NCBI GenBank assembly: GCA_963832165.1
Contig: CAWHTE010000003.1
Coordinates: 448,001-512,000 of the forward strand
Source: an uncultured delta proteobacterium
GTDB taxonomy: Bacteria; Myxococcota_A; UBA9160; SMWR01
Direction: 5' to 3'
DNA: 64,000 nt
The notes beneath the pieces are model-generated. The model was not told the DNA's origin and did no database searches. It worked only from the letters and a program-made list of their open reading frames with translations. Position numbers and translations under genes: made by a program. Of the stretch, positions 54,802 to 64,000 are shown one piece after another (positions within the stretch are counted from its first letter, which is position 1; every line of letters starts with the position of its first letter).

Positions 54802-56379
54802 ATGTCCGACGCAACCGGCACGATCGCGGTGCACGCGGAGCGCGATCCGAGCCGGGTCGCGGTGATCTACGGAAACGGCGACTTCGTCGAGACCTGGGGC
54901 GAGCTCGAGCAGCGCTCGCGGCGCTGGGCGCATCTCCTGCGAGCGCGCGGGCTCGCGCGCGGCGGGTGCGTCGCCGCGATCGTCGGCAACGACGATCCCG
55001 TGTTCATGGATCTGTTCTGGGCGTGCCACCGGATCGGGGTCTACTTCACGCCCGTCAACTGGCACCTCCAGGAGCCGGAGATCCAGTACATCGTCGACGA
55101 CTGCGACGCCGACGCGATCGTGGTGTCGCCGCGCTTCGCGGCGACGGCCGCGCGCGTGGCGCCGCAGTGCCCGAAGGCGCAGGTGCGCATCGTCACGGGC
55201 GGCTCCGCGCCAGGCGGGTTCGAGACACTCGCCGACGCGCTGGCCGAGACCCCTGAGGACGCGCCGCTTCCGGATCAAGCCGAGGGCTCGATCATGCTCT
55301 ACTCGTCGGGCACGACGGGGCGCCCGAAGGGCGTGCGCCGGCCGCTGCCCGACGGCCCCCCCGGCGAGCCCGGCACCACCGCATTCGCGCGCGGTTTCAT
55401 GGGGCTGTTCGGGCTCGGCGGCGACGAGCGCTACCTCGTTCCCGCGCCGCTCTACCACGCGGCCCCGCTCGGGTGGAGCACGAACCTGATGCGCAACGGA
55501 TCGTCGGTGGTGATCATGCCGCGCTTCGATCCGGAGCTCGCGCTGCAGATGATCCAGGACCAGCGCGTGACCGCGTCGCAGTGGGTGCCGACCCACTTCC
55601 GCCGGCTGCTCCAGCTCCCGGAGGCCGTGCGCGCGAAGTACGACCTGTCGTCGCTGCGCTTCGCCGTGCACGCGGCCGCACCGTGTCCGATTCCCGTGAA
55701 GCAGCAGATGATCGCGTGGTGGGGAGATGCGATCGTCGAGTACTACGCCGGCACCGAGGGCGGCGGAACCCTCGTGCGCGCGCGCGAGTGGCTGGAGCGC
55801 CCGGGCACGGTGGGACGCCACTGGGCGGGCGGCAAGATCTGGATCCTCGACGAGGACGGCAACGAGGTGACCCGGCCCGGTGTCGAGGGCGCGATCTATT
55901 TCCCGACGCCGCCGGGCGTGACGCGTTTCTCGTACCACAAGGACCCGGCCAAGACCGCGAAGACCTATCGCGGCGATCTCTACACGATCGGCGACATCGG
56001 CTATCTCGACGAGGCGGGGTATCTGTTCCTCACCGATCGCCAGTCGAACATGATCATCTCGGGCGGCGTGAACATCTATCCGCAGGAGACCGAGAACCAC
56101 CTGATCGTGCACCCGAAGGTCGACGACGTCGCCGTGATCGGCGTGCCCGACGAGGAGATGGGTGAGGCGGTGAAGGCCGTGGTGATCCCGGCCGCGGGCG
56201 CGGAGCCGGGTCCCGAGCTCGAGGCCGAGCTGATCGCCTGGTGCCGCTCGGGGATCGCCCACTACAAGTGCCCGAAGACGATCGACTTCGTGCGCGAGCT
56301 TCCGCGCACCGAGACGGGCAAGATGGCCAAGCGCGTGCTGCGCGACCGCTACTGGGGCGAAGGTCGCAAGCTGGTGTAG
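54802..56379 (+). CDS. Acyl-CoA synthetase (AMP-binding)
   Basis: YSSGTTGRPKG, YYAGTE, GDIGYLD, ISGGVNIYP, LPRTETGK. Confidence 0.95.
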   Translation: MSDATGTIAVHAERDPSRVAVIYGNGDFVETWGELEQRSRRWAHLLRARGLARGGCVAAIVGNDDPVFMDLFWACHRIGVYFTPVNWHLQEPEIQYIVDDCDADAIVVSPRFAATAARVAPQCPKAQVRIVTGGSAPGGFETLADALAETPEDAPLPDQAEGSIMLYSSGTTGRPKGVRRPLPDGPPGEPGTTAFARGFMGLFGLGGDERYLVPAPLYHAAPLGWSTNLMRNGSSVVIMPRFDPELALQMIQDQRVTASQWVPTHFRRLLQLPEAVRAKYDLSSLRFAVHAAAPCPIPVKQQMIAWWGDAIVEYYAGTEGGGTLVRAREWLERPGTVGRHWAGGKIWILDEDGNEVTRPGVEGAIYFPTPPGVTRFSYHKDPAKTAKTYRGDLYTIGDIGYLDEAGYLFLTDRQSNMIISGGVNIYPQETENHLIVHPKVDDVAVIGVPDEEMGEAVKAVVIPAAGAEPGPELEAELIAWCRSGIAHYKCPKTIDFVRELPRTETGKMAKRVLRDRYWGEGRKLV

Positions 56380-56469
56380 AGCGTCGCGCGCGTGGACGAG
56401 AGCGCGGCGAGCACCGCCGAGGAGACGGTCACCCGCCGCGCGCTCTGATTCAGCGCATAGAAGAAGCGA

Positions 56470-56670
56470 TTACTTGCGGCGCCGCGACACGAGGCCGGCC
56501 ACGGTCAGCGCCACGCCCATGAGGAGCGCGCCGCTCGGCTCCGGAACCGGAGCCGGAGGCGGGGTCCCGCCGCCGCACAGGAGGATCCCCAGGAGGCAGA
56601 GATCCGCGAGTGCCGCGGTCGGCACCAGGAACAGAAGCGCAGAGAACAGCAGAGTCTTGGTCAACTTCAT
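56470..56670 (-). CDS. Minimal PEP-CTERM protein (66 aa)
   Basis: GGAG RBS; signal MKLTKTLLFSALLFLVPTAALA; core DLCLLGILLCGGGTPPPAP; tail VPEPSGALLMGVALTVAGLVSRRRK. Confidence 0.8.
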   Translation of the reverse strand: MKLTKTLLFSALLFLVPTAALADLCLLGILLCGGGTPPPAPVPEPSGALLMGVALTVAGLVSRRRK

Positions 56671-56786
56671 GATCAGCATCTCCAGCGGGTGCAGGTGAAT
56701 CGAGTTGGCTGTTGGTGGCCCCGAGCCGCCTCGAGGTGACAGGTCCTCGGGGGAAGTCGCGGGTCCGGAGTTCGTCCGGCCCGCGA

Positions 56787-56816
56787 ATTCTCTCATGATT
56801 TTGGAACGGGGGTCAA
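56787..56816 (-). promoter_or_regulatory. Putative sigma-70 promoter of the minimal PEP-CTERM gene
   Basis: Minus strand TTGACC-N18-GAGAAT with TG just upstream of the -10, followed by a hairpin-rich leader. Confidence 0.45.
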
Positions 56817-56837: not shown

Positions 56838-58334
56838 CTATCCCCTAGGGGATCCCCAGCGCGTCTCGAGCAGATCCAGCCCCTTGAGCAGCGCGTTGCG
56901 CAGGTCTCGCGGGTCGATCACGTCGTCGTAGGTCAGGCCCGCCGCCATGCCCCACGGCCCGGACCGCTGTCGGGCTTCGACCTTGGCCTGCGTGGCCTCG
57001 TCGAGCTTCGCTGATTTCCCGCCGGAATCGGCGGGCATCGCGTCCATCGTGACGCCCGGAAACGCGAACGAGAGCGTCTGATGGTCGAACGGGTTCTGGC
57101 CCATCGTGACGGCCCCGAAGCCGAACGATTTGCGCATCGTGACGTGCAGCTTCGGCACGCGCGCGCGGCGCTGCGCCTTGAACATCTTGCCGCCCCACTT
57201 GAGGATGCCGTCGCGCTCGGCCTGCGTGCCCGCCATCACGCCCGGATTGTCGGCGAGGAACACGAGCGGAAGGCCGAATGCGTCCGCGGTCGCGATGAAG
57301 TCCATCGCCTTGATCGCGGCAGGGCTGTCGACCGCGCCTGCGCGAACGGCCGGGTTGTTGGCGAGGATCGCCACCGAGCGCCCGCCGAGCCAGGCGAGTG
57401 CGCACACGAGCGAGCGCCCGTAGCGCGGCTGGATCTCGAGCAGGCCGCCCTCGTCGACGAGCTCCTCGAGGATCGGGAGCACCTTGTAGGGGCGGCGGTC
57501 GTTCGCGGGCATGATCTCGAGGATCCGCTCGAGCCGACGCGGTCCGGTGTCGGGTCCGCTGCGGCGCGGCGCGCGCTCGTCGCAGCTCGACGGGAAGTAG
57601 CAGAGATAACGCCGCGCGAGCGCGATCGCGGCCGCGTCGTCGGGCGCGACGTTGTGCGCGGTGCCCGCGATCTCCGCGCAGATCTTGGGACCGCCGAGCT
57701 CGTCCTTCGTGACGTCTTCGCCGGTCGCGGCCTTCACGAGCGGCGGACCGCCCGTGAACATCGATGCGCCCTCGCTCATGATCGTGATGTCGGAGAGCGG
57801 CGAGGTGAGCGCGCCGTGTCCCGCCGACGCGCCGAGCACGAGACACACCATCGGCACCTGGCCCGACAGATCCGCGAGCGCGAGCAGGTCGTTCGGCGCG
57901 CGGCCCGCGTGTCCGCCGAGCGTGCTCGTGAGCCGGTGGCCCGCGCCGTCGAGCATGAACACGAGCGGCACGCGCTCCTGCAGCGCGAGCTCGCAGATCC
58001 GATAGCGCTTGGACATCGCGCCGATCCCGATCGAGCCGCCGAGCACGCTGAAGTCTTCGGCGCCCGCGAACGCGGTGCGGCCGTCGATCTTGCCGAAGCC
58101 CGCGACGAGTGCGTCGGCCGGGATCTCCGTGCCGCCCGCGAGCGCGCCGATCTCGACGAACGTGCCCGGATCGAACAGGTGCGCGATGCGCTGGCGCGCG
58201 TCGAGCTTGCCCCGCCCGTGCAACAGGCGCCCGATGCGCTCGGGCCCGCCCATCGCGCGCGCGGCGGTCTGTCGGCGCTCGAGCTCGTCGAGCAGGGGTT
58301 TCCAGCCGTTCCAGGGATCGCCAGCGTCGCTCAC
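56838..58334 (-). CDS. Acyl-CoA carboxylase carboxyltransferase (beta) subunit
   Basis: GKLDARQRI..LFDPGTF, DFSVLGGS, MFTGGP, ELGG, DNPG, DDVIDP. Confidence 0.9.
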   Translation of the reverse strand: MSDAGDPWNGWKPLLDELERRQTAARAMGGPERIGRLLHGRGKLDARQRIAHLFDPGTFVEIGALAGGTEIPADALVAGFGKIDGRTAFAGAEDFSVLGGSIGIGAMSKRYRICELALQERVPLVFMLDGAGHRLTSTLGGHAGRAPNDLLALADLSGQVPMVCLVLGASAGHGALTSPLSDITIMSEGASMFTGGPPLVKAATGEDVTKDELGGPKICAEIAGTAHNVAPDDAAAIALARRYLCYFPSSCDERAPRRSGPDTGPRRLERILEIMPANDRRPYKVLPILEELVDEGGLLEIQPRYGRSLVCALAWLGGRSVAILANNPAVRAGAVDSPAAIKAMDFIATADAFGLPLVFLADNPGVMAGTQAERDGILKWGGKMFKAQRRARVPKLHVTMRKSFGFGAVTMGQNPFDHQTLSFAFPGVTMDAMPADSGGKSAKLDEATQAKVEARQRSGPWGMAAGLTYDDVIDPRDLRNALLKGLDLLETRWGSPRG

Positions 58335-62226: not shown

Positions 62227-63072
62227 TCAGATCCGGACGGGGTGTACCGGTGCGCCCGCGACGTCGACGCGCGTGCGCAGCACGCAGCCGCGCAGGTCGG
62301 GATCGCCGGTGTGATCCGCCGTGGTGACGATCAAGTCGCAGCGGTCGGCGCCCGCGAAGCACACGCTCGTGACGACGTGCGCCGGTACGGCGAGGCTGCG
62401 ATCCACCGTCCCGTTGGTTCGGTAGCGGTCGACGCGGCCTCCACCCGCCGACGCGACCCACACGCCGCCGAGCACGTCCACCGCGATACCGTCGGGCCGT
62501 CCGTTCACCATCGCCCAGGTGCGGCGCGCGCTGGCATTGCCCGCGCGGTCGAAGGTGTGTACGAAGATCACGCCCGCGCGCGTGTCGGAGTGATAGAGCG
62601 TTCGCTCGTCCGGCGAGAGCGCGATGCCATTCGCGTGCAACACGCCGCCGTACACGACGTGCGCCTCGCCCTCCTTGTCGATCCGGTAGCACTCGCCCGG
62701 TACCGGCTGCGCGTTCGGGTCGAACACCGCGAAGCGCAGCGCGCCCGCGTAGACGCGGCCCGCCGTGTCGGTGCACAGGTCGTTCCAGCCCGGCAGTCCC
62801 GGGATCGAGAGCAGCGTGCGCGTGACGCCCGCGTGCACGTGCACGATGTCGCGACCCGAGCACACGACGCCTCCGTCGGCGTGCAGCGCGATCCCGCCGA
62901 CGCCGCGCCGCTTCGGCACGAGCGTGCTGACCGCGCCGGCGCGGTCGACGCGGTACACGCCGCCGCCGAGGACGTCGCTGAAGACGATGGCGCCCGCGGC
63001 GTCTTCCGTGGGGCCTTCGACGAGTCCGTAGCCGCGCGCGAGCACCTCGAAGTGCACGGGCTGCGGCGTCAC
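62227..63072 (-). CDS. SMP-30/gluconolactonase/LRE family protein
   Basis: LVEGP, FSDV, WND, ANGIALSPD, PDGIAVD, TSVCFAG. Confidence 0.9.
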   Translation of the reverse strand: MTPQPVHFEVLARGYGLVEGPTEDAAGAIVFSDVLGGGVYRVDRAGAVSTLVPKRRGVGGIALHADGGVVCSGRDIVHVHAGVTRTLLSIPGLPGWNDLCTDTAGRVYAGALRFAVFDPNAQPVPGECYRIDKEGEAHVVYGGVLHANGIALSPDERTLYHSDTRAGVIFVHTFDRAGNASARRTWAMVNGRPDGIAVDVLGGVWVASAGGGRVDRYRTNGTVDRSLAVPAHVVTSVCFAGADRCDLIVTTADHTGDPDLRGCVLRTRVDVAGAPVHPVRI

Positions 63073-64000
63073 TGATCCTGATCCTGGTCTTGGTCCTGAT
63101 CTTGATCCGCGCACGGGCCTTCGCAGGGAACGAACACGTCGAGCACCTCGCGGCGCAGCGGGTACTGTTCGGGATGCGCCGCCTCTTCCTCCTGCCAGCC
63201 ACCGCCGAGCGCGCGGTACAGCTGAACGACGCTGAGCAGCGCGCTCAGACGATTGCGCGCGAGCGCGTTCTCGGCCGGAAACAGCTCCTGCTGCGATTCG
63301 AGGACCTCGTAGTAGTTCGCGAGGCCGCCCGAGTAGCGCGAGTTCGACAGGCGCACGGCGTCCTGGAGCGCAACGACCTGCCGCTCGAGCTCGACGTTGG
63401 CGGCGAGGTACTTCTGGCGCGCCACGAGCGAGTTGGAGACCTCGGCCAGCGCGTTCAGCACCGTTCGCTCGTAGGCCAGGAGCGACTCCTCCCAGGCGGC
63501 GACGTCGAACTTGTATCCGTAGTAGAGCCGGCCGCCCTGGAACAGCGGGCCCGTCACGGCGGCGCCGATCGACCACACGTTGCCCGACTTCTTGACGATG
63601 TTCTCGATCTCGCTGCTCTGACCGCCGTAGAGCGCGGTGAGGCCGATCCGGGGCAGGAAGCTCGCGATCGAGACACCCACCTGCGCGTTCGCCGCGACGA
63701 TGTTCTCCTCGGCTTGCAGCACGTCGGGGCGGCGCCGCAGCAGCTCGGCCGGCAGCCCCGCCGGCACCTCGGGCGAGTAGTCCTGCTCGACCAGGGCGCT
63801 GCCGCGCGCGATGTCGCTCGGATGTCGCCCGAGCAGGATCGAGAGCTGGTTCTCCTTGGCCACGATCTGGCGCTCGAGATCCGGGATCGCCGCGGCCGTA
63901 CTCGCGAGCGCGGCCTCCGCGCGCGAGGTCGCGAGCCGCGTGCCGACGCCGCCGGTGAGCTGACGCTCGAAGAGGTCGAGCGTCTGCTGGAACGAGTCCC
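63069..64000 (-). CDS. RND efflux outer-membrane factor (NodT/OprM family), 5'-truncated by the window edge
   Basis: VPAGLPAELLRRRPDVLQAE, PLFQGG, VQLYRALGGGW. Confidence 0.93.
   Translation of the reverse strand, partial: DSFQQTLDLFERQLTGGVGTRLATSRAEAALASTAAAIPDLERQIVAKENQLSILLGRHPSDIARGSALVEQDYSPEVPAGLPAELLRRRPDVLQAEENIVAANAQVGVSIASFLPRIGLTALYGGQSSEIENIVKKSGNVWSIGAAVTGPLFQGGRLYYGYKFDVAAWEESLLAYERTVLNALAEVSNSLVARQKYLAANVELERQVVALQDAVRLSNSRYSGGLANYYEVLESQQELFPAENALARNRLSALLSVVQLYRALGGGWQEEEAAHPEQYPLRREVLDVFVPCEGPCADQDQDQDQDQDQ

Follow-up and report, generated by a model that had tools for sequence, protein, structure and literature searches.

The locus described here raises the question of what a PEP-CTERM protein can be for when hardly anything stands between its export signal and its sorting tail. 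In the 64,000-nucleotide stretch of DNA that was analysed (hereafter the window), the initial annotation had described a 66-aa open reading frame with a ribosome-binding site, a signal peptide and a VPEP-TM-RRRK tail, and had read the residues in between as a disulfide-capable peptide. The same sequence was found by us on the minus strand, with a GGAG ribosome-binding site in front of it. The gene, termed P0001, and its parts are:

56470..56670, minus strand: mini PEP-CTERM gene P0001, 66 aa (reading frame, tail-HMM matches, codon usage, family of 82)
56680..56683, minus strand: GGAG ribosome-binding site, 9 nt 5' of the ATG (sequence)
56605..56670, minus strand: predicted signal peptide for Sec export (residues 1-22), cut after P17-T-A-A-L-A22 (sequence, conservation of Ala22 and Pro17)
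56548..56604, minus strand: passenger of 19 residues, a hydrophobic head followed by a Gly/Pro stalk (sequence)
56598-56596 and 56577-56575, minus strand: the passenger cysteines Cys25 and Cys32 (sequence)
56473..56547, minus strand: PEP-CTERM tail (VPEP, transmembrane helix, RRRK), residues 42-66 (HMM matches)

P0001 codes for a minimal PEP-CTERM protein

P0001 is a genuine coding gene. It comprises 66 codons on the minus strand, from an ATG at 56670 to a TAA at 56472-56470. With a codon-usage model trained on its own genome, the frame obtained a log-likelihood of +11.6, compared to -15 to -51 for the remaining five frames, and its GC3 is 0.88. Since the in-frame extension of 42 codons 5' of the gene scored -7.8, we place the start at 56670 (or at an overlapping ATG at 56679) and not at 56796, and rejected a 108-aa version of the protein that would begin at the upstream start.

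We infer the 22-aa signal and its cleavage after Ala22 from the n/h/c layout and from the conservation of two residues: Ala22 is invariant in 20 of 20 aligned homologues, and both Ala22 and Pro17 are conserved in at least 90% of a larger alignment of 79. The tail passed the HMM check proposed in the initial annotation, scoring 23.1 bits against TIGR02595 (cut-off 16), and reached 22.3 bits against PF07589 (cut-off 20.7). Pro43 and Glu44 are invariant in all 79 aligned sequences and Pro45 is present in at least 90%, a conservation that is partly a product of the search. The tail is of a family-specific type, SGALxMG, and the only one of this type in its own genome. Taken together, P0001 has a PEP motif, a helix, a basic C-terminal cluster and a predicted signal, and there is an exosortase in the genome; in each of these respects it is a PEP-CTERM protein.

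An AlphaFold model of P0001 (pLDDT 72.8, pTM 0.32) consists of a helix at residues 2-32, a loop and a helix at residues 45-65, and carries no information about a Cys25-Cys32 bond. A lipoprotein processed by signal peptidase II was also considered and rejected: the residues preceding Cys25 are A-D-L, without a canonical lipobox, and more than half of the homologues (57/82) have no passenger cysteine at all.

The homologues are equally short and patchily distributed

Profile comparison places P0001 in an unnamed family of tiny proteins from uncultured bacteria, in which some 20 fast-changing residues are all that separates the export signal from the sorting tag. Profiles were required, as a single-sequence search with P0001 matched, among 17 candidates, the query alone. 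A first profile, built from nine mini-proteins of the same genome and of relatives, brought full-length homologues to light; a second one, together with an unindexed search, extended the set to 82. These members comprise 74 of the top 77 hits of the second-profile search and 8 picked by eye from 150 hits of the unindexed search. The three left out of the top 77 (P0091 and P0294, which look frameshifted, and P0283, which was omitted) have no passenger cysteine; 25 lower-ranking hits, which belong to other families or match in the tail only, were left out as well. The passengers of the 82 members are 8-36 aa long, with a median of 20, and signal and tail are similar throughout. The initial annotation had asked whether the reading frame is conserved and whether its orthologues might be much longer: the frame is conserved, with 82 homologues and five loci that keep window neighbours, and the orthologues are equally short.

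A search of genome contigs returned two loci, both tail-only matches from other lineages, and among viral contigs 35 pattern matches were obtained, none of them related to P0001. Ten of the 30 metagenome loci examined carry family members. A neighbour from the window is retained in five loci (L049, L053, L054, L055 and L066), namely the carboxyl transferase in L049, L054 and L066, and the acyl-CoA synthetase in L053, L054 and L055. The family copy in genome G005 has an upstream gene in common with L066 (60% identical). Full-length high scores were found in two of 44 reference genomes of the host's family; class-wide, where 27 candidates were scored for each of 225 genomes, four genomes matched at E 1e-11, two of the four being weaker, more distant matches. 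In G001 (95% complete) and G003 (90% complete), the gene is absent at the orthologous position, with both flanking enzymes present and other genes between them. The low number of genomes with full-length matches and this absence from G001 and G003 mean that the gene is dispensable at the genus level. By these comparisons the gene is conserved, but confined to part of one lineage. Three pairs of members (P0250/P0258, P0318/P0253 and P0069/P0262), each from contigs of equal length, may represent two family genes on one contig, a coincidence partly expected by chance.

With regard to existing models, none in NCBIfam seems to cover the family: the matches of P0001 are restricted to the tail region, and over 79 members the best E-values are about 1e-7 or weaker. 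The named PEP-CTERM subfamilies (PepA, XDP1, FxDxF and others) gave no full-length match above cut-off; P0001 matched them by the tail only and far below.

Passengers are anionic and carry either two cysteines or none

The 82 passengers are almost always anionic, with 340 Asp/Glu compared to 45 Lys/Arg in 1661 residues. They are amphipathic or Asp-rich, and 28 of the 82 were placed in a residual class, 'acidic/other'. The first ten passenger residues have a helical periodicity with its maximum at 90-100 degrees (p<0.1 for 41 of 80 sequences), in a test in which four cleavage sites were mis-set. The head of P0001 itself is uniformly hydrophobic and not amphipathic (p 0.96).

Cysteine was found zero times in 57 passengers and twice in 25, and in none of the 82 is the count odd. 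Random placement of the cysteines would lead to about 29 peptides with an odd count, and the minimum in 5000 trials was 16. After dereplication at 60% identity, 35 members without cysteine and 10 with the pair remained. On a tree of signal plus tail, which is of low resolution (44 columns), the cysteine state changes 8 times, compared to a mean of 21.7 for shuffled states, and always as a pair. The passenger had initially been called disulfide-capable, and this idea was borne out insofar as the two cysteines seem to be under joint selection, each of the 82 members having either none or two. Because the count is 0 or 2 and never odd, an intrachain disulfide between Cys25 and Cys32 is likely, the pair being optional across the family.

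The C-x6-C loop described in the initial annotation is not conserved in the family. The spacing among the 25 pair-bearing members is x4 in 14, x5 in 7, x6 in one (P0001), x7 in 2 and x8 in one, so that C-x6-C was rejected as a family motif. At the locus itself the loop is not conserved either, as positional orthologues bear non-Cys amphipathic or Asp-rich peptides.

Even and odd cysteine counts stand at 48:17 among the PEP-CTERM proteins of the genome and at 1507:1788 among proteins not scored as exported; a crude 'signal-like' class shows no even bias (252:258). Neither DsbB nor VKOR was found in this genome, which is 89% complete, and in five relatives DsbB was found in two and VKOR in none. 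Nine DSBA-family matches were found. In view of the even-Cys bias without DsbB or VKOR, another disulfide oxidant may be used. G005, which is 99% complete, likewise has no detected DsbB or VKOR.

The passenger varies far faster than its surroundings

Over the 82 members, mean pairwise identity is 43% in the signal, 28% in the passenger and 67% in the tail, the last value being inflated by hit selection. Syntenic copies of the mini gene are 54-61% identical to that of the window (pN 0.26-0.33), while the flanking enzymes are 85-95% identical (pN 0.03-0.09). Pooled over 35 pairs, not independent of each other, that were drawn from nine genes in frame, pN/pS is 0.65 for the signal, 0.64 for the passenger and 0.45 for the tail, compared to 0.10-0.30 for the flanking genes; the passenger value is to be read with caution since it rests on unreliable alignments. 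With the same proviso for the passenger, the ratio below one that had been proposed as a check was obtained in all three segments. At fourfold-degenerate sites the mini gene differs in 51 of 115 positions and the flanks differ in 377 of 1225, a weak hint that the alleles of the mini gene are older.

One and the same chromosomal site carries different types of passenger: with a Cys pair in the window, L049 and L054, amphipathic without cysteine in L053, and Asp-rich in L055 and L066. The close pair L050/L052 differs in only two bases, both of them non-synonymous and both within the passenger, which is too few to show positive selection. The rapid change of the passenger fits relaxed constraint as much as it fits diversifying selection. 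Selection appears to act on the physical character of the passenger and not on its exact sequence.

The gene stands between metabolic enzymes, and its promoter-like site was not found in four orthologous loci

The surroundings of P0001 contain the following elements:

56838..58334, minus strand: upstream neighbour, carboxyl-transferase-family enzyme; a synteny marker, presumably outside the system (Pfam, synteny)
54802..56379, plus strand: convergent neighbour, acyl-CoA synthetase; a synteny marker (Pfam, synteny)
56787..56816, minus strand: putative sigma-70-like site, without counterpart in four orthologous loci (motif scan)
56399..56462, no strand assigned: 3' element, a 14-nt motif (56449-56462) and then a hairpin rich in GC, located between the two convergent genes (motif comparison; fold z -2.7)

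The neighbours scanned are enzymes of acyl-CoA metabolism or variable inserts. Among them, several of which have no Pfam match, we found no receptor, kinase, transporter, modifying enzyme or exosortase beside the gene, and no adjacent EPS or exosortase locus. A cassette for a peptide pheromone or RiPP was rejected, with no receptor, transporter or modifying enzyme adjacent among the annotated neighbours, as was a dedicated pair of exosortase and substrate, since neither the window nor the set of scanned neighbours contains an exosortase. The signalling role suggested earlier gains no support from this neighbourhood.

The interval between carboxyl transferase and acyl-CoA synthetase is possibly a site with a variable content of envelope genes. 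In G003, it holds two glycosyltransferases, and in L054 an extra TPR/beta-barrel-like gene. The interval in G005 contains a 71-aa open reading frame without Pfam match (L134:316-531; G005:C182, minus strand), which presumably resembles a Flp-type pilin. Farther off in the window, at 63069-63863 on the minus strand, there is an open reading frame that by eye resembles an outer-membrane efflux protein and ends in a DQ repeat.

The gene had also been credited with promoter-like elements of its own. One sigma-70-like site (56816-56787) was indeed found in the window upstream of P0001, with 9 of 12 consensus matches against a mean of 0.0 in shuffled sequence, but the identical scan gave none in the upstream regions of four out of four orthologous loci. 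A sigma-54 promoter, as in PEP-CTERM genes controlled by PrsK/PrsR, was rejected: we obtained no box at up to 2 mismatches in the 3.2 kb scanned. Since the sigma-70-like site is missing from all four orthologues and a sigma-54 box was not found, an own promoter for P0001 is unproven.

Downstream, the 14-nt motif follows directly after the stop codon in L049, L050, L053, L054, L055 and L060, flanked by short inverted repeats. It is present behind most orthologues, and the copy in the window (56449-56462) is the reverse complement, resembling a hairpin-loop inversion. Conservation regardless of orientation would be compatible with a DNA-binding site.

The genome encodes several exosortases and other short PEP-CTERM proteins

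The genome has six PF09721 matches above cut-off, corresponding to four intact genes and the two halves of a split one, and one match below. The set of exosortases thus comprises four intact genes over the Pfam cut-off, one gene that a frameshift has split and a short gene of XrtH-like type. Two of the exosortases pass the TIGR02602 cut-off, and none reaches that of XrtA. No exosortase gene lies within the 64-kb window, the nearest match being about 72 kb away. The split gene stands beside an EpsI-like gene at G000:C3:208551-209508, with the frameshift near 208950, possibly an assembly error. Two long exosortases, at G000:C5:125510-133493 and C5:150930-157365, are located near PEP-CTERM proteins with a Cys-His pair in their tails, which suggests paralogue-specific tail types.

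In the same genome, 88 PEP-CTERM-like genes were called. Their median length is 289 aa; the shortest three code for 69-80 aa and the next for 130 aa. No long protein with the tail type of P0001 was found among the proteins of this genome. Two further short PEP-CTERM genes, at C7:149203-149574 and C11:220105-220383, are of a separate 'LGADC' type; the C7 copy has syntenic counterparts in G001, G005 and G006, and the C11 copy has PES in place of PEP. Dozens of unrelated mini PEP-CTERM proteins with arbitrary-looking spacers occur among the search matches. The layout is therefore less exceptional than the initial annotation suggests: two more mini PEP-CTERM genes are present in this genome and dozens of unrelated ones elsewhere. 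At the other extreme, P0122-P0125, P0127 and others are long (up to 2500 aa) and contain 4-10 PEP-CTERM-like stretches in their interior.

Discussion

The known system closest in build are the PEP-CTERM substrates of exosortase (EpsH; TIGR02595, PF07589), with which P0001, going by the parts of Haft et al. 2006 cited here (PMC1569441), shares the signal, the PEP motif, the helix and the basic C-terminus, and also the single-gene layout, exosortases elsewhere in the genome and rapid evolution. It differs from the usual substrates in its passenger of about 20 aa, compared to the 289-aa median of the PEP-CTERM genes in its own genome, and in cysteine content, which is 3.0% in the passengers of the family and 0.4% in the PEP-CTERM proteins described in that source. 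The short VPDSG-CTERM (PF18205) and VPEID-CTERM (PF27847) proteins resemble P0001 in layout and differ in the tag; these two tags are not named in any paper of the literature searched. Look-alike clusters in the Atlas, 68-84 aa long with VPDSG-, VPEID- or PEP-CTERM tags, scored 0.90-0.91 with 132-152 shared features and serve as leads only. The LGADC-type mini proteins have the same minimal layout and come from the same lineage, but have a single cysteine after the signal, a Gly/Ser spacer, another tail type and a wider spread in the genus. Archaeosortase ArtA with its PGF-CTERM substrates, a homologous protease family, provides the model of tail removal and lipid attachment; it differs in being archaeal and in that the substrate described in the cited passages is a large S-layer glycoprotein (PMC7157517; 10.1101/2023.06.07.544157). 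The nearest functional precedent is the flocculation protein PepA (NF033554), a PEP-CTERM protein with a role in surface and floc; P0001 matches only the tail of this 261-position model, at 16.9 bits compared to a cut-off of 80. By title or start of the abstract, we found no paper on minimal PEP-CTERM peptides, and short members may sit in supplementary protein tables. Particular to the P0001 family, as judged from its sequences, is a passenger that varies far faster than its neighbours but retains its charge, a strict pairing of cysteines and, in many cases, amphipathy.

We favour, at a little better than an even chance, the reading of P0001 as an exosortase-anchored, strain-variable envelope peptide. 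With only some 20 residues between signal and sorting tag, the product is likely to be a short envelope peptide and not a folded protein. Judging from motif and conservation, the precursor would be exported by Sec and cut by signal peptidase after Ala22, and the pairing statistics suggest that Cys25 and Cys32 would be oxidised to a loop. From what is known of the family, an exosortase of the genome, acting in trans, would remove the transmembrane tail at the PEP motif, and, by analogy with archaeosortase, the peptide may be moved onto an acceptor, either a lipid or a polysaccharide. This would give a Pro/Gly/Asp stalk topped by an anionic head of hydrophobic or amphipathic character, a product that might tune surface adhesion or the contact of cells with EPS. 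PEP-CTERM proteins have been linked to floc formation and cell-to-EPS adhesion, with Zoogloea PepA and Nostoc CrtB as adhesion precedents, and the passages cited leave open whether such proteins are anchored or released (10.1101/2023.06.07.544157; PMC12188702). Against an anchored peptide speak the members with only 8-10 passenger residues, which look like spacers, and also the size of the 'acidic/other' class, the non-amphipathic head of P0001 itself, the failure to find DsbB or VKOR in its genome or an even-Cys bias in the 'signal-like' class, and the dispensability of the gene at the genus level.

The passenger might, conversely, be no more than a tolerated spacer, with the function provided by the membrane tail or by the event of processing; the protein could, for instance, serve as primer or carrier when lipid or EPS is attached, or act as a small membrane partner of an exosortase. 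This would agree with a tail that is the most conserved part of the protein and unique in form within its genome, with the shrinkage of some passengers to 8-10 aa and with the arbitrary-looking spacers of so many unrelated mini PEP-CTERM proteins. A spacer, however, has no need for paired cysteines that are gained or lost together about eight times on the signal-plus-tail tree, or for recurring amphipathic heads, and the gene adjoins neither an exosortase nor an EPS locus; we therefore consider this explanation rather unlikely, while giving it due weight. There is a slim chance that the exosortase hydrolyses the tail and frees a peptide, cyclic or linear, that would act as a signal specific to the strain. 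This peptide is short, predicted to be exported and hypervariable across syntenic loci, both base differences between L050 and L052 change the passenger, and release in place of anchoring is left open for exosortases in the passages cited (PMC12188702). The two substitutions are, however, too few to speak for positive selection, no receptor, kinase or transporter gene occurs among the neighbours scanned (several without Pfam match), and the alleles of low complexity, rich in Asp, that occupy the same locus would make poor specific ligands.

Equally improbable, in our view, is that P0001 is in practice no exosortase substrate and persists, after signal cleavage, as a 44-residue single-pass peptide of the inner membrane. 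The distance of about 72 kb to the nearest exosortase match would speak for it; the conservation of Pro43, Glu44 and Pro45, albeit partly a product of the search, speaks against it, as does the description of most PEP-CTERM genes as single-gene operons served in trans (PMC1569441, as far as cited). That P0001 is, finally, what a deletion has left of a long PEP-CTERM gene, now in decay, is largely refuted and highly improbable. PEP-CTERM genes are described as turning over fast in the cited part of the same source, and two matches (P0091 and P0294/L056) look frameshifted near the N-terminus. Against decay stand the 82 short homologues, nine DNA copies that are all in frame with pN/pS below one, a genome without any long protein bearing this tail, and best full-length matches in the 225 genomes of the class that are all short (27 candidates scored per genome). 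The gene is conserved and its homologues are all short, and the remnant reading therefore fails.

Returning to the anchored envelope peptide, an extension that we regard as unlikely, if attractive, would make the exosortase a route of peptide lipidation: anionic lipopeptides of ribosomal origin, some of them cyclised by a disulfide, might coat the cell, the head serving as a determinant of strain identity or phage evasion under diversifying selection, with allele types exchanged at one site. The significance of the finding is limited, as mini signal-plus-tail proteins occur commonly, the gene has a patchy distribution and its host is uncultured. In the passages cited, the acceptor of bacterial exosortase substrates and the crossing of the outer membrane by their products are still open (PMC12188702; 10.1101/2023.06.07.544157). 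A natural substrate that would leave a product of about 2 kDa is well suited to the mapping of cleavage site and adduct by mass spectrometry, and the 82 natural variants indicate what exosortases may tolerate, a guide of use in peptide display. Should the variable heads turn out to be identity tags, they would represent a new use of the exosortase pathway.
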